NCBI GenBank assembly: GCA_031431925.1
Contig: JANPEL010000369.1
Location: forward strand, 22,134 to 86,133
Length of the DNA: 64,000 nucleotides
DNA from: Gemmatimonadota bacterium
GTDB taxonomy: Bacteria; Gemmatimonadota; Gemmatimonadetes; Gemmatimonadales; GWC2-71-9
Direction of reading: 5' to 3'
Part shown: positions 17,719 to 25,204 of the stretch, in pieces
Layout of the letters: every line of letters starts with the position of its first letter
Numbering within the stretch: the first letter of the stretch is position 1
Translations under genes and position numbers: made by a program
Notes under the pieces: model-generated
The model's database searches: none
What the model was told of the DNA's origin: nothing
Seen by the model: only the letters and a program-made list of their open reading frames with translations

Positions 17719-20259
17719 CTAGAATCGGGTGGTCAAACCACCGAGGAGGCGGCGCCCGTTGACCGAGCCGCCGAAGATCGAGTAGCGCTGCTGGTCGAAC
17801 AGATTGGTGGCCGCCACATAAACTCGGAGGTTGTTGTTGACGGCAAATCCCGCGTTGGCGTCGATCGTGCCCTGGGGTTCGATCCAGCCGGCGAACACCC
17901 CGGCGGCCCAGTCATACCCCTTCACCGCCCGGAAGTTCACCCCCAGATCGAGGCCACTCCGGCCGGCGTACGTCACCGCGATGTTGCCTTTCGAACTGGG
18001 CGTGTTGGGAAGCAGTTGATCGCCCGCCAATTGCTCGTTGATGTCGAACCGGAAGATCGTCAGGTTCGCATCGACCCGGAACTCGTCCGCCAACTGGAGG
18101 CCCGCGGCGAACTCGAAGCCGTACTGCGTGGCTTTACCGGCGTTGGCATACGACACGACGATGGCGGTCTTGCCATCTTCCTGCCGGGTCAGGCCCCGGC
18201 CGGCGGTGGCGGTGGCCGGATTGGCGAGCAAGGCGCTTCGGACCGCGCCTTGGAGGGCGGCCCGGGCGGCGGCGGGTACGGCGGTCGGAGCGGTCCAGGC
18301 ACCAAAGGCCGGGTTGACGCCGGGCAGCAGATCGGTGACGAAGTCTTTCAGCACGTTCAAATAGGCGTCGACCGAAAAGTAGAACCGATCGGTCAGGTCG
18401 CCGCGGTAGCCGATCTCGATGCCGGTGTTCTTTTCGACTTGGAGCTTGTTATTGCCCCGGGCCCGGACCGGGACGGCGGCGGTGTTGTCGAACAGCTGTC
18501 CGGCCGGCACGCCGGCGAGGAGGGGGCCTAACTGCGGGTTGGCCCGGAGACCGGCTTCGAGGGCCGAGAAATTGGCCGGCGCGCCGGCGGCGGCATTGAG
18601 GAAGAACTCCGAGTAATTCGGGGTCTGGAATGCCTTGTTGAACGTGAACCGGATCGAATGCCGGTCGCTCGGCGAGTAGACGATGGCCGCCTTGGGCGAG
18701 AATTGGGCGTCGATCAGGCCGCCGAGATCGTACCGGCCGGCCGCCACCAGTTTGGTGACGTCGCTGAGCTTGTATTCGAACTGGCTGAAGAGCGCGTAGT
18801 AATTGTCGGTCCGGTCGTCATCGGGACGATTGATCAGGGTCCGCTGGGTGTTGAGGCTGTACTTGCGGAAGGAACCGCCGAGCACGAACCGACCCTTGCC
18901 GTCCGCGAAGGTGTTCTTCTGCTGGCCCTCGACGTGGAAGATGTCGGACCGTTCCTCGAGGCCCGCACCGGACGCGAGCGAATACTGCGGCTCTTCGGTA
19001 TTGCGGCCATTCCAATAGGCCATCACGTCGAAGGCCTTCGCGGCGTAGTTGAAGCGGGTGTAAGGCCGGATCGATTTGGTGATTTGCACGCGGCCGATGC
19101 CGGTGACGGCGGTTTCATTTTCGGCCATCGCCATCCCGAACTCACCGGTGGCGATGTCGCCGTTGGCGGTGTAGTAGTCGAGCCGAGCTGACCCGTAGGT
19201 GCTCTTGACGGGGTCCCGGTCGCCGGTCAGTGCGCCGGTGGCCAGGTCGGCGGTCTGGCCGTTCAAGGCCCTGAGCTCCCGCCGGGAACACGACGAGCAA
19301 AAGCCCCGGAAGGTCAGGGAGTCGGTGGCGGGCCGGTATTCGGTCTTGAGGGCGCTGCCGTCGGCCAGGGTCCGGGAGCGGGACCAGGTGTCGCTGCGGT
19401 AGTAGCCAACGTTGACTCGGTACCCGAACCGGCCGTCGTACAGCAATCCCGCGTGTCGGAGATCCGCCTTGGCGGTGGAAAGCCCGCCGCCGCCGACGCT
19501 CAGTTTGGTGCCGACGACTTCGCGCGCCGCGGGGGTCTTGATGTTGAGGACACCCGCGTAGGCGTTGGCTCCGTAGAGCGCCGAACCGGGGCCGCGGACC
19601 AATTCCATCGAACCGATATCTTCGGTCGGGACCGAGAGCGCGTTCCACTCTTGGTTGCCGAGGAAGCCGGTGGCCACATCGCGACCATCGATCAGCACCA
19701 GCACCCGGCGGTTCAACGACGAGTTGAATCCGCGGGTGTTGACGTTGAAGTCGTTGACCCCATTTTGGGCCAAGTCCACCCCGGGGACCGCGGCTAGGGC
19801 GAGCGGCGCCTGTCCGGTAATCGAGGTGGTCTGGAGGGTCCGGGCGTCGATGACCGACACGGCCGCCGGTGCTTGGGTGGCCCGCTCCGGAGCTTTCGAG
19901 GCGGTGGTGACGATCAAGTCATTCAAGGCGATCGGATGGGCTTCCATTTTGGCGTCGGCCGTGGCGCTGCCACCGGCGGTTACCGTGACCGACACCTCGG
20001 TCGGCTTGTAGCCGAGCCAGCGAAACACCAACGTGTAGGTGCCGGCGGGTACCCGCTCGAGCACGTAACGGCCTTGGGTGTTGGTGACGGCGCTGGTGCC
20101 GGGGCCGCGGACCCCAACTACCACGCCGGCCAGCGGGGCGCCATCATCCGCTCGGGTGACTTTGCCGGTAACTGTGCCGGTGCTCTGGGCCATGACCGTG
20201 GGTGCCGCAAGGAACGCGAGGGCGGCCGCCAGCACGCCCGCCGAACGAAGCAAACGCAT
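17719..20259 (-). CDS. TonB-dependent receptor with N-terminal carboxypeptidase-regulatory-like domain
   Basis: Signal peptide; GTVTGKVTRADDGAPLAGVVVGVRG...GRYVLERVPAGTYTLVFRWLGY; plug region (TQAPAAVSVID, PGVDLAQNG); C-terminal ...RLLGGLTTRF. Confidence 0.85.
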   Translation of the reverse strand: MRLLRSAGVLAAALAFLAAPTVMAQSTGTVTGKVTRADDGAPLAGVVVGVRGPGTSAVTNTQGRYVLERVPAGTYTLVFRWLGYKPTEVSVTVTAGGSATADAKMEAHPIALNDLIVTTASKAPERATQAPAAVSVIDARTLQTTSITGQAPLALAAVPGVDLAQNGVNDFNVNTRGFNSSLNRRVLVLIDGRDVATGFLGNQEWNALSVPTEDIGSMELVRGPGSALYGANAYAGVLNIKTPAAREVVGTKLSVGGGGLSTAKADLRHAGLLYDGRFGYRVNVGYYRSDTWSRSRTLADGSALKTEYRPATDSLTFRGFCSSCSRRELRALNGQTADLATGALTGDRDPVKSTYGSARLDYYTANGDIATGEFGMAMAENETAVTGIGRVQITKSIRPYTRFNYAAKAFDVMAYWNGRNTEEPQYSLASGAGLEERSDIFHVEGQQKNTFADGKGRFVLGGSFRKYSLNTQRTLINRPDDDRTDNYYALFSQFEYKLSDVTKLVAAGRYDLGGLIDAQFSPKAAIVYSPSDRHSIRFTFNKAFQTPNYSEFFLNAAAGAPANFSALEAGLRANPQLGPLLAGVPAGQLFDNTAAVPVRARGNNKLQVEKNTGIEIGYRGDLTDRFYFSVDAYLNVLKDFVTDLLPGVNPAFGAWTAPTAVPAAARAALQGAVRSALLANPATATAGRGLTRQEDGKTAIVVSYANAGKATQYGFEFAAGLQLADEFRVDANLTIFRFDINEQLAGDQLLPNTPSSKGNIAVTYAGRSGLDLGVNFRAVKGYDWAAGVFAGWIEPQGTIDANAGFAVNNNLRVYVAATNLFDQQRYSIFGGSVNGRRLLGGLTTRF

Positions 20260-20365: not shown

Positions 20366-21556
20366 CTATTTGACCAGACTGACTTTCGTGACCCGGACGC
20401 GTCCCGGTTCGCTGCCGCTTGGGGCCGGTTCGGCGTAGGCCACGTAGAGATCCGATCCCACCAGGGCTGTCCGGGGGAATCCACCGTCCCGGGACCGGCT
20501 GGTCGTCGCGACTGTCAGGATCTCTCGATCGGCACCCCCCCCGCCAACCGAGCGGACCCGCCAGAAGGCCTGATTGCCGTCGGCCTCGAGCCAAGTCACG
20601 ACGCCTCGACCTGGGCTGGTCATCTGGAAGTGTACCCGCCCCAATGGGTTACCCTCGTCAATCCGGATCGGCTTTCCGAACGTCCGACCCCCGTCGGTCG
20701 AGAAGGCGGCATTGACCTTCGGGACGCCGTTGGCCGCGGTAAACCACGCCACGCCCACGTCGTTGCCCGAGGCGGCGATGGACGGACCGTTCACGGGACA
20801 TTGTCGCGAAACCCACCCGTCGTTTGCCACCTTCACTGGTTCCGACCACCCGGCTCCGTCCTGACGGACGACAGCGATGTCCCGGATCTCCTGTTCCGAC
20901 CGATCCCGGTAGGCCACCACCAGCCCACCTCGCCCCGCAGTCATCGAGACTTGGCAGCACTCGCAGGTTCGGGTGTCGAGCGCGGCCTCGGCCGAGACGG
21001 TTCCATCGGGGTTCCAGAGGGCAGTCCGGACGGACATTGCGCCGGCGGAGTCGGTCATTTGGCGGCCGTCGAGCCAGGCCACGGCCACCGAACCCGAGCT
21101 GAGGGGGACCATGGCGACGAAGCCGTGCTCGGTGGCGGAGGTATCGGAATGGACGGTGACCGGTGCCGACCAGGTCCGGCCCCGGTCTCTGGAGGCGGCG
21201 AGCTTCACATGATATGCGTAAGCCTTCGTCGCGGTCTTCTCCAACCAATGGACGACCCAGGTACCGGTCGTGGTTTCAGTGATCGAGGGGAAGTCAGCCC
21301 AGTTGACGAAGAACTTGTCGCTTTCCGCGATCGTGACGGGGGGAGACCAGGCCCCGGCTGATCGGCTGGCCGCTCGGAGCGCGTAGCGACGATCCGCCCG
21401 GGGTTCGAACCAGCTGAGCATCAAGTCGCCCTTGGAGGTGCGACTCAAAAACGGTTTGCTGCTGCCCGGCGGGCCGGTCCATTCGAGGGTGGTTTTCCCA
21501 CTGGGGGTGCTTCCCCCAACCGCCAGAGCCGCGAGGACGATCCACGCTGTTCGCAT
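20366..21556 (-). CDS. BNR/Asp-box repeat protein of the sialidase (exo-alpha-sialidase-like) beta-propeller superfamily, secreted
   Basis: Asp-box motifs SRDRGRTWS and STDGGRTFG, an N-terminal signal, and repeated propeller-blade pattern. Confidence 0.7.
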   Translation of the reverse strand: MRTAWIVLAALAVGGSTPSGKTTLEWTGPPGSSKPFLSRTSKGDLMLSWFEPRADRRYALRAASRSAGAWSPPVTIAESDKFFVNWADFPSITETTTGTWVVHWLEKTATKAYAYHVKLAASRDRGRTWSAPVTVHSDTSATEHGFVAMVPLSSGSVAVAWLDGRQMTDSAGAMSVRTALWNPDGTVSAEAALDTRTCECCQVSMTAGRGGLVVAYRDRSEQEIRDIAVVRQDGAGWSEPVKVANDGWVSRQCPVNGPSIAASGNDVGVAWFTAANGVPKVNAAFSTDGGRTFGKPIRIDEGNPLGRVHFQMTSPGRGVVTWLEADGNQAFWRVRSVGGGGADREILTVATTSRSRDGGFPRTALVGSDLYVAYAEPAPSGSEPGRVRVTKVSLVK

Positions 21557-21591
21557 GGTTCAATATCGCATCGGCCGGCCGGGTCCGCCAA

Positions 21592-22041
21592 TCAGTCGGT
21601 GGCGGCCTCGAGGGCTGCTTGGTTGGGCCACCGGGTGTGGCCTTTGGCCAGGTCAGCCAGGGTGGTGTGGCGGAGGAACCGAACCACCCGGTCGCCGAGG
21701 GCGCTCCAGGCCGCGTGGGCCGGACAGGCGGCCTTCGCGGTGCACTCGGGCTGGCCTAGCAGACACCGGCGAACCGAGTCGAACCGTTCGAACGGCTCGA
21801 CGATCTCGTACAGGGTGATCTGGTTCCGGGGTCGGGCCAGCAGGAAGCCGCCGTGTTTGCCTCGGACCGAGTCCAAAACCCCGACCCGCGCCAACTGGGA
21901 GAGGGTTTTGGAGAGGTAATTCCTCGGCACGTCGAGGGCGTCAGCCAGGACGGCGACATGGACCGGGCCGTGGGCCTCGTGTTGGGCCAAGACCGTGGCG
22001 GCCCGGAGGGCATACTCGGATGTTTGCGAGAGAATGGCCAT
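21592..22041 (-). CDS. Rrf2-family transcriptional regulator with Fe-S ligand set (NsrR/IscR-like)
   Basis: MAILSQTSEYALRAATVLA...NYLSKTLSQLARVGVLDSVRGKHGGFLLARP is a winged-HTH. C-terminal RCLLGQPECTAKAACPAH gives C-x6-C-x5-C-x2-H. Divergent from the nos operon. Confidence 0.85.
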   Translation of the reverse strand: MAILSQTSEYALRAATVLAQHEAHGPVHVAVLADALDVPRNYLSKTLSQLARVGVLDSVRGKHGGFLLARPRNQITLYEIVEPFERFDSVRRCLLGQPECTAKAACPAHAAWSALGDRVVRFLRHTTLADLAKGHTRWPNQAALEAATD

Positions 22042-22053
22042 TTAGACTCCTCT

Positions 22054-22075
22054 AACGTCATGATAATATGACATT
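22054..22075. promoter_or_regulatory. AT-rich inverted repeat, candidate Rrf2 operator in the divergent nos/rrf2 promoter region
   Basis: AACGTCAT-gataat-ATGACATT has 7 of 8 positions complementary. It begins 13 nt upstream of the Rrf2 start codon (22041), inside a 166-nt intergenic segment of visibly lower GC. Confidence 0.4.
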
Positions 22076-22207
22076 TACGGCGTGCAAGTCCTTGATTTCC
22101 ATAGACCCTGAAGAGCCCCTCACGTTCAATTAATGAATTCTCGCCTGGAACCGCGATAGGATCATCGTGAGCAAGCAGTCTCCAATGACACTCACGAGCG
22201 GGGGGGT

Positions 22208-22681
22208 ATGCGCGGTTTTCTGGCGGTGGTCGCGGTGACGGTGATGGCGGCGGGTTGCGGCGGGAAGGACAGTGCCGGTTCGGCCCCTCCGGCGGCCGGC
22301 GCCCCGGCGAGCGACCTGACGCCGTTTCAGCTCGAGCACGGGATCGGGCCGATCACCGAGGTCCTGACCCTTGGGGCGCTCGATCAGGGCCTCGCGGATT
22401 CCGGTCAGACGGTGTTTGGCGCCAAGTGCACCGCGTGCCACAAGATGGCCGAGAAGTATGTGGGCCCGGCGTTAGGCGAGGTACTGACCCGCCGGTCGCC
22501 GACGTTCGCGATGAACATGATCCTCAATCCGAATGAAATGGTCGAACGTCACCCGGTGGCCAAGCAGATGTTGGCCGAGGCGATGACGATGATGGCGAAT
22601 CAGGGGTTGACGACCGGCGAGGCGCGGGCCGTCGTGGAGTATCTCCGCACCCAAGCCACCGGAACGGTGAAAACACAATGA
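22208..22681 (+). CDS. nosC: Monohaem c-type cytochrome lipoprotein (NosC-like electron donor)
   Basis: Lipobox VMAAGC, single haem motif CTACH, and downstream Met-rich segment. Its stop overlaps the nosZ start as ATGA (22678-22681). Confidence 0.8.
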   Translation: MRGFLAVVAVTVMAAGCGGKDSAGSAPPAAGAPASDLTPFQLEHGIGPITEVLTLGALDQGLADSGQTVFGAKCTACHKMAEKYVGPALGEVLTRRSPTFAMNMILNPNEMVERHPVAKQMLAEAMTMMANQGLTTGEARAVVEYLRTQATGTVKTQ

Positions 22682-24621
22682 CACGGAGGAATCGAACCAT
22701 GCGGGTCGCGACGTTGGGGTTACTGGTGCTGGCGGGATGTGCCGGCCAAGGCGGAAGCCCGATCGGGGGCAGTGGCGACGCTGCCTCCAAGGTGTACGTG
22801 GCGCCGGGCCAGTACGACGAATTTTATGCGTTCATGTCCGGCGGATTCAGCGGGCAGGTGACGGTCTACGGGCTTCCCTCCGGCCGGCTGCTCCAGCAAA
22901 TCCCGGTGTTCTCCCAGTATCCGGAAAAGGGCTACGGCTACTCGGAGGAGTCCAAGCCGATGCTGGCCACCAGCTTCGGGTCGGTGCCGTGGGACGACGC
23001 CCATCATCCGCAGCTCTCGACGACCAATGGCGAGCACGACGGCCGGTGGCTCTTCATCAACGGCAACAACACGCCCCGGATCGCCCGGCTCGACCTCACC
23101 AAGTTCGAAACCGAAGAGATCCTCGAGATTCCGAACTCGGGCGGCGGGCATGCTTCGCCGTTTCTGACGGAGAACACGGAATACGTCGTCAGTGCCACTC
23201 GGTTCTCGGTGCCGACGCCCCAGGCGGACGTGCCGATCGCGGGATCGAAGTTCGGGGGTCTGTTGTCGTTCGTGAAAGTCGATCCGACGAGCGGCCACAT
23301 GGCGTTGGCCTTCCAGATCCATATGCCGGGGTTTCACTACGATCTGTCGCGGGCCGGCAAGGGTCCCTCGCATGGCTGGTCGTTCTTCAGTTCCTACAAC
23401 TCCGAAGAGGCGAAGACCCTGCTCGAAAAGAACGCCTCGCAGAAGGACAAGGACTTCATTGCCGCGGTCAACTGGAAACAAGCGGAACAGTGCGTCGCCG
23501 ACGGCAAGGCCAAGCAGTGGCCCGCCAAGTACGCCCACAACATCCGCAGTGCGGATGGCGTCGCGACCACGGAAATGCTGACCTCCGCCACGGTGCTCGA
23601 GCCGGCCGACTGTCCCGGCATCGTCTATTTCCTGCCGACCCCGAAGTCGCCCCACGGTGCGGATGTCGATCCGAGCGGCGAGTTCATCGTCGGTGGCGGT
23701 AAGTTGGCGACGATTCTGCCGGTGCACTCGTTCTCGAAGATGATCAAAGCGATCGCCGACAAGGCGTTCGAGACCGAAATCGACGGCGTGCCGGTGATCC
23801 GGTACGAAGCGGTCAACGCTTGCGAAGTGCAGAATCCGGGCTTGGGCCCCTTGCACACTGAGTTCGACGACAAGGGCTTCGCCTATACGTCGGTGTTTCT
23901 GTCGTCGGAGATCATCAAGTGGGACCTCAAGAAGTGTGTCGTGGTCGATCGCACTCCGACGTTCTACTCAATCGGACATTTGATGGTTCCCGGCGGCGAC
24001 ACCCGGAAGCCCGATGGGAAGTACGTCGTCGCGCTCAACAAGATCACCAAAGACCGGTATCTGCCGACCGGGCCTGAGCTGACCCAGTCGGCCCAGCTCT
24101 ATGACATCACCGGCGACAAGATGAAGTTGTTGCTCGACTTCCCGACCACCGGCGAACCGCACTACGCCCAGGCGATCCTGGCCTCCAAGATCAAAGACAA
24201 GCAGCTCAGGACGTTCGCGTTGGAAGCCAACCACCATCATGCCGCGGTCAAGGCCGAGAAGGACGTCAAGGTCGTTCGCGAGGGGACTACGGTCCACATC
24301 TACATGACGGCGATCCGGAGCCACTTCATGCCGGACAACATCGAAGGGGTGCACGTGGGCGACGAAGTCTTCTTCCACCTCACCAACCTGGAACAGGACT
24401 GGGACGTGCCGCACGGCTTTGCGGTCATGGGCGCGAATACGTCGGAACTCTTGGTGATGCCGGGCCAGACCCAGACGATCACCTGGAAGCCGACTAGGCC
24501 CGGCGTCTTCCCGTTCTACTGCACCGACTTCTGCTCGGCGTTGCACCAGGAAATGCAGGGGTACATCCGGGTCTCGCCGAAGGGCTCCGGCACTAAAGTG
24601 TCGTTCAACACGGGGCAGTGA
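22678..24621 (+). CDS. nosZ: Nitrous-oxide reductase, clade II (atypical, Sec/lipoprotein-type) NosZ
   Basis: CuA motif CTDFCSALHQEMQGY. First CuZ motif is DDAHHPQ (DxHH without the third His), as in clade II. Seven-blade propeller length (647 aa). N-terminus has lipobox LVLAGC rather than a Tat signal. The start could alternatively be Met8 (22699). Confidence 0.95.
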   Translation: MTRRNRTMRVATLGLLVLAGCAGQGGSPIGGSGDAASKVYVAPGQYDEFYAFMSGGFSGQVTVYGLPSGRLLQQIPVFSQYPEKGYGYSEESKPMLATSFGSVPWDDAHHPQLSTTNGEHDGRWLFINGNNTPRIARLDLTKFETEEILEIPNSGGGHASPFLTENTEYVVSATRFSVPTPQADVPIAGSKFGGLLSFVKVDPTSGHMALAFQIHMPGFHYDLSRAGKGPSHGWSFFSSYNSEEAKTLLEKNASQKDKDFIAAVNWKQAEQCVADGKAKQWPAKYAHNIRSADGVATTEMLTSATVLEPADCPGIVYFLPTPKSPHGADVDPSGEFIVGGGKLATILPVHSFSKMIKAIADKAFETEIDGVPVIRYEAVNACEVQNPGLGPLHTEFDDKGFAYTSVFLSSEIIKWDLKKCVVVDRTPTFYSIGHLMVPGGDTRKPDGKYVVALNKITKDRYLPTGPELTQSAQLYDITGDKMKLLLDFPTTGEPHYAQAILASKIKDKQLRTFALEANHHHAAVKAEKDVKVVREGTTVHIYMTAIRSHFMPDNIEGVHVGDEVFFHLTNLEQDWDVPHGFAVMGANTSELLVMPGQTQTITWKPTRPGVFPFYCTDFCSALHQEMQGYIRVSPKGSGTKVSFNTGQ

Positions 24622-24625
24622 TCCA

Positions 24626-25204
24626 ATGATGACCAGATGGGCCAGAATCCTGTTGGCGGTCGCCGCTTTGGGTCTGGTGACGAGCTATGTGGCGCCGCTC
24701 TGGCACATTGCCTTGAAGGCGCCCCAGTACCCCGAGGGGCTCGGCATGTACATCTGGTCGAGCAAAATTACGGGCGAGCTCCGGAGTATCAACGGGCTCA
24801 ACCACTACATCGGGATGAAGGAAATCCACCCCGAGGCCATCCCCGAGCTCCGGCTGATGCCGCAGATCGTGGCCGGCCTCGTGGTGCTTGGCCTGATCGC
24901 GGCGGCGTGGGGGCGCCGGAGCGGGCTGTACGCCTGGACCGGACTTTTTCTGGCCGGCTCACTGGTCGGCCTGGCGGACTTCTGGCGCTGGGGCTATGAC
25001 TATGGGCACAACCTCAATCCAGAGGCGGCGATCAGGATTCCCGGGATGAGCTATCAACCGCCGTTGATCGGGCCCAAACAGCTCCTCAACTTCCAAGCGA
25101 CGTCGTGGCCCGCGACGGCCGGGTGGTTTGCCGTCGGCGGGCTGACGGTTGCCGTGGTCCTCTCGGTACTCGAATGGCGCCGAGCGCGGCGGGTGCCGGT
25201 CTGA
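24626..25204 (+). CDS. nosB: Four-TM membrane protein in the NosB position of clade II nos clusters
   Basis: Hydrophobic segments ILLAVAALGLVTSYVAPLW, IVAGLVVLGLIAAAW, LYAWTGLFLAGSLVGLADFW and WFAVGGLTVAVVLSVL. Position directly after nosZ. Confidence 0.6.
   Translation: MMTRWARILLAVAALGLVTSYVAPLWHIALKAPQYPEGLGMYIWSSKITGELRSINGLNHYIGMKEIHPEAIPELRLMPQIVAGLVVLGLIAAAWGRRSGLYAWTGLFLAGSLVGLADFWRWGYDYGHNLNPEAAIRIPGMSYQPPLIGPKQLLNFQATSWPATAGWFAVGGLTVAVVLSVLEWRRARRVPV

Follow-up and report, generated by a model that had tools for sequence, protein, structure and literature searches.

The window analysed here, a 64,000-nucleotide (nt) stretch of the 5.2-Mb metagenome-assembled genome of a Gemmatimonadota bacterium from soil (labelled G000 in our genome comparisons), contains an rrf2 gene that is divergent from a clade II nos operon for nitrous oxide (N2O) reduction, with a palindrome, termed P1, in the spacer between them. 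Taken together, our results lead us to lean towards an arrangement in which the Rrf2 protein serves as a cluster-dependent autorepressor of rrf2, probably also covering the BNR-propeller and TonB-receptor genes that follow it, and engages in cross-binding with a paralog encoded elsewhere in the genome, while the nos operon would be driven separately through a second element, termed B2. This arrangement departs from the one proposed in a first-pass annotation of the window, in which a nitric oxide (NO)- or redox-responsive Rrf2 repressor controls both its own gene and nos through the palindrome. Positions given below are those of the window unless a contig of the genome is named.

The rrf2 gene (21592-22041, minus strand) encodes a protein of 149 amino acids, as defined by the translation of its open reading frame (ORF) and by the Pfam Rrf2 family. 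The protein scores 109.3 bits on PF02082 (2e-31, cut-off 30) over residues 4-133 and 116.1 bits on TIGR00738 (cut-off 73.3). The translated ORF contains the ligand motif C93-x6-C100-x5-C106-x2-H109, and Cys93, Cys100, Cys106, His109, and Trp112 are unchanged across 21 aligned relatives, in which the recognition helix NYLSK is also almost invariant. Three conserved cysteines in the loop after the winged helix, together with a fourth ligand, define the Fe-S subgroup of the family. The protein is thus an Fe-S-type Rrf2 regulator with predicted cluster binding, and the invariance of the three cysteines and the histidine upholds the classification made in the first-pass annotation. Glu9 occupies the position of the N-terminal acidic ligand, which is Asp8 in NsrR and Glu8 in RsrR. 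In the structure-database comparison, His109 aligns with His107 of IscR, and the protein carries the complete Cys3-His ligand set of IscR (C92, C98, C104, and H107). Its cysteines align within 1-2 positions of the mutated cysteine sites in 4hf0. The closest solved structures are those of IscR (1e-13) and RsrR (2e-13), with Streptomyces coelicolor NsrR (5n07) reaching only 1.7e-5. None of the named equivalog models is matched above its cut-off: the scores are 75.1 bits on TIGR02010 (cut-off 207.55) and 62.9 bits on NF008110 (cut-off 275) for IscR, 54.8 bits on NF008240 (cut-off 182) for NsrR, 47 bits for RirA (cut-off 193), and 48 bits for CymR (cut-off 195). IscR is therefore the best-scoring named model, although its score lies far under the cut-off.

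The divergent operon begins with a gene for a nosC-like monoheme cytochrome c (22208-22681, plus strand; ATG at 22208), assigned by family match, followed by nosZ (22678-24621, plus strand). The nosZ product belongs to the Sec-dependent clade II type, with 918.1 bits on TIGR04246 (cut-off 625) versus 366.7 bits on TIGR04244. The translation, Pfam, and TIGR04246 confirm every observation that had been recorded for this gene pair, namely an Rrf2 protein of this length and ligand spacing divergent from nosC-nosZ. The spacer between the two genes (22042-22207, 166 nt) has a guanine-plus-cytosine fraction of 0.488 versus 0.653 for the window, in line with the low value noted previously.

For the comparison of loci, a sample of 110 rrf2 loci was assembled from relatives in 61 related genomes and from the best 80 of 450 matches in a species-representative collection; all of these best 80 matches are from Gemmatimonadota. 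At 52 loci, rrf2 is divergent from nosC-nosZ-nosD, and the adjacency to clade II nos thus recurs in other genomes. Another 42 loci are oxidase-linked, with a COX2-like/COX1-like pair on one side of rrf2 and a divergent cytochrome b/Fe-S gene on the other, and the remaining 16 lie on short contigs or elsewhere. Either the nos or the oxidase context is conserved in 94 of the 110 loci. The subfamily is Gemmatimonadota-wide and tied to the last denitrification steps. In a quick tree, a long branch parts it from canonical NsrR-like proteins, and the nos and oxidase contexts are interleaved inside the subfamily, with at least five forced switches each.

The palindrome P1 (AACGTCAT-N6-ATGACATT, in full AACGTCAT-GATAAT-ATGACATT) is located at 22054-22075, with the core GTCAT-N6-ATGAC at 22057-22072, and 12 nt separate it from the rrf2 start codon. 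Within the window, P1 alone is at chance level, since GTCAT-N6-ATGAC with at most one mismatch yields 3 matches versus 1.33 expected. Its significance derives from conservation across loci, not from window statistics. A dyad occurs upstream of nearly all subfamily rrf2 genes; many oxidase-linked loci carry it as a perfect TTATCAT-N6-ATGATAA, and the nos-linked loci carry the ATCAT-N6-ATGAT form. Motifs were counted on non-redundant loci, 43 nos-linked and 41 oxidase-linked, with expected values from shuffled sequences. Matches to ATCAT-N6-ATGAT at 9 or more of 10 positions within 150 nt upstream of rrf2 were detected in 19 of the 43 nos-linked loci (0.10 expected) and 31 of the 41 oxidase-linked loci (0.04 expected); these and the following counts express conservation and not a probability, since related genomes are not independent samples. 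Across more than 60 loci in the two contexts, the arms (ATCAT and ATGAT) are kept and the 6-nt spacer varies, with ATTATC, ATCATC, ACGCGT, GAGCAT, and GAACAT among its forms. P1 is the predicted operator of the subfamily, with a consensus of roughly WWTRTCAT-N6-ATGAYAWW; the operator status that the first-pass annotation had assigned to the palindrome is accordingly backed by the family as a whole. A matrix scan of the 5.2-Mb genome yields only two strong sites, the promoter of the paralog (28.8 bits) and P1 (24.4 bits), and the runners-up (19.8 and 18.8 bits) fall within a gene or at the beginning of an ORF. Two further candidate operators were rejected: C61:6537 is located within a gene, and C26:5995 is weak and stands at the start of an unannotated 150-amino-acid ORF just before a TolC-like gene. 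The 166-nt spacer contains no second operator-like site besides P1.

The position of P1 relative to rrf2 points to autoregulation. The predicted -10 element of rrf2 (TATCAT, 22060-22065, minus strand), read from the sequence, lies inside P1, and its position is conserved in the orthologs and in the oxidase-linked class. A putative -35 element (TTGCAC, 22082-22087, minus strand) is separated from it by a 16-nt spacer; the counterpart is TTGC at a fixed distance in the close orthologs at L005-L009 and L012, TTGG in L010 and L011, and CTTGCG in the oxidase-linked class. The rrf2 transcript is predicted to start near 22053. Since P1 overlaps the -10 element of rrf2 itself, autorepression of rrf2 through P1 is likely. 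The gene for a BNR-repeat propeller protein of 396 amino acids (20366-21556, minus strand), which has no NCBIfam match, comes after rrf2 in the same orientation with a gap of 35 nt and is followed by a gene for a TonB-dependent receptor (17719-20259, minus strand). The rrf2-BNR-receptor array is conserved in the clade of the window and at some more distant loci. A terminator scan of 21500-22700 found no terminator between rrf2 and the BNR gene, which is probably co-transcribed with rrf2. Because no terminator is predicted and the array is conserved, P1 probably governs the whole rrf2-BNR-receptor unit. A role of the receptor as a copper channel of the NosA/OprC type was rejected for want of any match to a copper-receptor model.

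The nos operon is predicted to have its own promoter with a distinct control element, separate from P1. B2 (TGAAGAGCCCCTCA, 22109-22122), a TGAA-N6-TTCA-type box matching at 7 of 8 positions, constitutes the upstream element of this promoter. A third half-site, TTAA (22130-22133, plus strand; TTCA in most relatives), follows 7 nt past B2 with an 11-nt repeat period, and the predicted -10 element (TAGGAT, 22157-22162, plus strand) lies 34 nt after B2. The predicted nos start falls near 22169, which places the P1 centre (22064.5) at about -104. An 8/8 match to B2 is present in 22 of the 43 nos-linked loci and in none of the 41 oxidase-linked loci (0.07 expected), and a (T/G)AnnnT hexamer follows 33-35 nt past B2 on the nos-directed strand in 29 of the 43. 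The nos-linked loci often carry a further TTCA 7 nt after B2, which gives the same 11-nt period. A B2-type promoter also precedes nosC in G147 (99% complete) and G072, two genomes that lack the Rrf2 subfamily of the window and contain only weak, housekeeping-type Rrf2 matches. The persistence of B2 in these genomes indicates that it is independent of the Rrf2 subfamily. Given the separate nos promoter and the location of P1 at about -104, P1 is not placed to block nos in this genome. A nos-linked subgroup (L014, L018, L022, L026, and L027) differs in the dyad itself, which is GGATATT-N8-AATATCC instead of ATCAT-N6-ATGAT; at L014, a single B2 box apparently serves both divergent promoters, and rrf2 looks leaderless.

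The genome contains three Rrf2 paralogs, one of which is on contig C241 and another, outside the window, at the oxidase-linked locus L036 (C424:7166-10157), where rrf2, an operator, and oxidase genes stand together. The operator at this locus (C424:7166-7187) is near-perfect (ATTATCAT-ATCATC-ATGATGTT), and the C424 paralog heads genes for a CuA subunit and a heme-copper subunit I, with a heme A synthase (CtaA) gene nearby. The COX1-like subunit reaches only 71 bits on the CtaD model and has GHSSQQ where oxygen reductases have the cross-linked active-site tyrosine, and subunit II contains the CuA motif CNEFCGIGHHTM. NO reductases of the eNOR/sNOR type are recognised by the loss of this tyrosine together with the presence of CtaA (Murali 2024, PMC11214002). 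As a CuA-containing heme-copper oxidase without the active-site tyrosine, the C424 enzyme is a candidate NO reductase of this type, a group derived from B-family oxidases in which subunit II contains CuA and a CtaA gene is often close by. The recognition helix of the C424 paralog is identical to that of the window protein and its operator is near-identical to P1, which suggests that the two proteins probably cross-bind. The genome also encodes a bona fide nirK (C489:12388-13365, minus strand; 470 bits), and the organism therefore makes NO. Recurrence of the palindrome before other nitrogen-oxide or Fe-S assembly genes, as envisaged in the first-pass annotation, holds for the paralog at the candidate NO-reductase locus and fails for nirK, which has no Rrf2 operator upstream, and for isc and suf.

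Among possible binders of B2, the strongest candidate is an OmpR/PhoB-type response regulator encoded outside the window (C220:4443-5138). Its gene stands in a cassette (C220:2572-6407, locus L035) in which a cytoplasmic GAF histidine kinase, the response regulator, and a P1B heavy-metal ATPase are arranged in a row; a universal stress protein gene is divergent from this cassette. The promoter of the response regulator reads TGAA-N6-TTCA-N7-TTGA-N7-TTCA-N12-TAnnnT with the ATG directly after it (leaderless), an architecture kept in most of about 25 genus- or family-level relatives examined. Upstream of nirK, TTCA-N7-TTCA-N12-TATTGT occurs in the same phase as in the nos and response-regulator promoters. 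In G147, G072, and G111, an ortholog of the response regulator (76-78% identity) is encoded at a distance of 2-4 kb from nos. In G057 and G055, the two genomes of the sister family that were searched, the nosZ promoters lack B2 and only paralogs of 45-47% identity are present. A CRP/FNR protein was rejected as the binder of B2, since the TGA-N8-TCA spacing and a centre near -53.5 are at odds with a class II FNR site. The genome contains two CRP-family genes above the Pfam cut-off and two weaker matches, and of the three upstream regions examined, none has a clear box and none is nos-linked. One Crp/Fnr-family gene (C369:87880-88089) shares the contig with nos, approximately 1.7 kb past the window end and about 40 kb downstream of nos; a single B2-like match (7/8) stands 82 nt ahead of the putative start of this gene.

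The relation of the operator to nos differs among the relatives. In many of them, the operator has a B2 box on its rrf2 side, the two centres being a constant 25-26 nt or 33 nt apart, and the nos-directed -10 element follows 33-35 nt after this box. The operator is thereby located within the nos promoter, either in the region from about -35 to -20 or on the -10 element, and the dyad overlaps the rrf2 promoter as well. By strict criteria, the operator is inside the nos promoter in 8 of the 43 loci, and the addition of L098, L102, and L117, where it overlaps the -10 element, brings the number to at least 11; L108, L111, and L114 share this layout immediately in front of the first nos gene, with a weaker box. 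L112 and L069 are examples of loci whose operator stands between the box and the -10 element. Since the operator is inside the nos promoter, direct repression is expected in these relatives, and Rrf2 should repress nos directly in at least 11 of them. The dual repression and the nos operator posited in the first-pass annotation thus survive in part: autoregulation is likely, with P1 on the -10 element of rrf2, and the operator lies inside the nos promoter in the relatives, but at the window locus the sole operator-like site of the spacer is outside the nos promoter and about 104 nt upstream of the start. The clade of the window appears to have separated the rrf2-operator and nos-promoter modules.

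A sister family (loci L124-L133, L141, and L142), one of whose genomes is complete at 4.6 Mb, carries a canonical NsrR-like gene divergent from nosZ. Its product starts with MRLTRFTDNALR and is about 31% identical to the window protein. The L141 spacer contains an NsrR-type box (AAGATGCAAGTAATATGCATCTT), and weaker NsrR-like boxes are present in L142 and L130. Together with the subfamily relatives, this NsrR-like sister family suggests that Rrf2 control of clade II nos is a recurrent theme in the phylum. A broader account can be drawn from these patterns, which we put forward tentatively and with more doubt than belief: clade II nos in most Gemmatimonadota would have a two-input promoter, in which an OmpR-type regulator of a cytoplasmic GAF kinase activates at TGAA/TTCA repeats and a phylum-specific Fe-S Rrf2 repressor acts in the gap before the -10 element. 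The repressor gene would have moved repeatedly between nos and eNOR-like loci, and the clade of the window would have uncoupled it from nos and rewired it to the BNR/TonB-receptor unit.

For the window itself, the favoured mechanism would operate as follows. A cluster-bearing Rrf2 dimer on P1 would repress its own unit, comprising rrf2 and probably the BNR-propeller and TonB-receptor genes. Modification of the cluster, most likely by NO and possibly by oxygen or a redox change, would lift the repression. The window protein and the C424 paralog would probably cross-bind each other's operators, and nos would be driven by a separate promoter at a distance of about 100 nt, where B2 is bound by the OmpR-type response regulator of the GAF kinase. 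Several points weigh against this mechanism. A strict sigma-70 scan of 21500-22700 called no promoter, and both promoters are read from conservation; an activator box would not usually be centred near -53.5, as B2 is; the tree was built by a quick method from a short protein; and the Cys3-His ligand set is nearer to IscR than to NsrR, which bears on the signal. In addition, the divergent linkage of rrf2 and nos is conserved, which speaks for a functional connection of some kind, and from about -104 a site could act by looping, activator interplay, or divergent-promoter coupling. An alternative is that the Rrf2 protein controls both rrf2 and nosC-nosZ here from the single palindrome, as a distant repressor or as an anti-activator or co-activator of the box-bound factor. 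The linkage is kept across the clade, the operator belongs to nos promoters in relatives at the fixed distances from the box given above, and the 51 nt between the P1 and B2 centres correspond to about five helical turns. We nevertheless consider such shared control unlikely, given that P1 is so remote from the predicted nos start with no second site in the spacer, that the operator and the nos-proximal box are anywhere between 51 and 91 nt apart across loci, which excludes a rigid composite, and that the clade has gained genes downstream of rrf2 that provide the operator with another target.

Other alternatives concern the signal and the nature of P1. The cluster could sense oxygen or redox state, as in RsrR or oxidised IscR, and report the aerobic-anaerobic transition. 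The structural matches to IscR and RsrR and the alignment of His109 with the IscR ligand favour this possibility, as does the requirement of eNOR-type enzymes for heme A and microoxic conditions (PMC11214002), but it is doubtful in view of the contexts: half of the family resides at candidate NO-reductase loci, a classic NsrR-type target, the sister family places a canonical NsrR-like protein before nosZ, accompanied in at least one locus by an NsrR-type box, and nirK supplies NO within the organism. The candidate NO-reductase targets, nirK, and the NsrR analog in the sister family make NO, from context, the more likely signal, a plausible assignment. A general IscR-like regulator of Fe-S assembly with a coincidental nos adjacency would agree with IscR being the best named model (75 bits) and with the label of iron-sulfur cluster assembly regulator that some database sources give to relatives. 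It is nonetheless very improbable, since that score is far under the cut-off of 207.55, both strong genomic operator sites are at nos-side or oxidase-side loci with none at isc or suf, another Rrf2 paralog exists on C241, and the context is so widely conserved. Equally little credence can be given to a P1 that is not protein-bound and acts only as an AT-rich part of the promoter or as a hairpin in the leader RNA of rrf2. The palindrome does contain the predicted -10 element, and a 7-bp RNA hairpin is possible (-12 kcal/mol over a 50-nt stretch, z-score -2.0); however, conserved arms around a variable spacer in more than 60 loci follow the pattern of a dimer operator and not of covarying RNA pairs, the spacer lacks the -10 element in many relatives, and an Rfam search revealed no known RNA family in the rrf2-nos spacer.

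Downstream of nosZ, the operon continues with an ORF without a family match and then nosD, nosF, and nosY, ending by 28377. This ORF (24626-25204, plus strand), which encodes 192 amino acids and matches no Pfam or NCBIfam family, has a counterpart after nosZ in G147, G072, and G111 as well (36-61% identity).

These results offer two testable DNA elements and two candidate proteins for the control of nos in Gemmatimonadota, a phylum whose members rank with the most abundant clade II nosZ carriers of agricultural soils according to one report (PMC9530729), the text of which names no regulator. They predict that an Fe-S repressor, probably one that senses NO, gates N2O reduction in some lineages but not in others, that of the window included. 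This lineage difference bears on when Gemmatimonadota act as N2O sinks. The adjacency of Rrf2 and nos in other phyla is already known, and an Rrf2 repressor on a nitrogen-oxide gene is a familiar principle; what appears to be new is a subfamily and operator variant of a familiar regulator type, and the predicted wiring of nos here to a different control element.

Among known systems, an enrichment of Rrf2 regulators has been noted on clade II nos scaffolds from marine sediment (Calderoli et al. 2018, PMC6264515). Unlike the present analysis, that study concerned Bacteroidota-type queries and scaffolds and did not include an analysis of operators, promoters, or subfamilies. Crp/Fnr-type Nss regulators act on clade II nos in Campylobacterota, as NssA, NssB, and NssC in Wolinella and in Nitrosophilus (PMC11539149), and are the only experimentally supported clade II nos regulators found in the literature, in which we found no functional study of a nos-adjacent Rrf2 protein and no nos regulator for Gemmatimonadota. 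The Nss proteins belong to another protein family, and the Gemmatimonadota box, with its TGA-N8-TCA spacing and 11-nt repeats, does not fit the class II FNR site. The window protein resembles NsrR, the NO-sensing [4Fe-4S] repressor of Escherichia coli, Bacillus subtilis, and S. coelicolor, in its Rrf2 fold, its three C-terminal cysteines, its acidic N-terminal ligand position (Glu9 here, Asp8 in S. coelicolor NsrR), and, as predicted here, in autoregulation and in the use of an AT-rich palindrome as an operator placed over promoters of genes for NO-related respiration or detoxification. It differs from NsrR in the 8-6-8 operator with even symmetry (ATCAT-N6-ATGAT core), as opposed to the 11-1-11 type AAGATGCATTT, in the extra invariant His109 of the subfamily, and in its targets, which are nos and the eNOR-like oxidase in the subfamily and hmp, nirK, and norB for NsrR. 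With E. coli IscR ([2Fe-2S], Cys3-His), it shares the ligand pattern and the predicted arrangement in which the regulator gene heads the unit that it represses, but the isc or suf context is absent and both strong operator sites are elsewhere. The operator also appears unlike the consensus sequences of IscR type 1 and type 2 sites. The nasD and hmp promoters of B. subtilis combine activation by ResD, a member of the OmpR family, with repression by NsrR. The relatives show a similar design, in which predicted OmpR-type upstream repeats accompany an Rrf2 operator in the core promoter of a gene for nitrogen-oxide respiration; they differ from the B. subtilis case in proteins, in motifs, and in having clade II nos as the target, and in the window the two elements reside on separate promoters.

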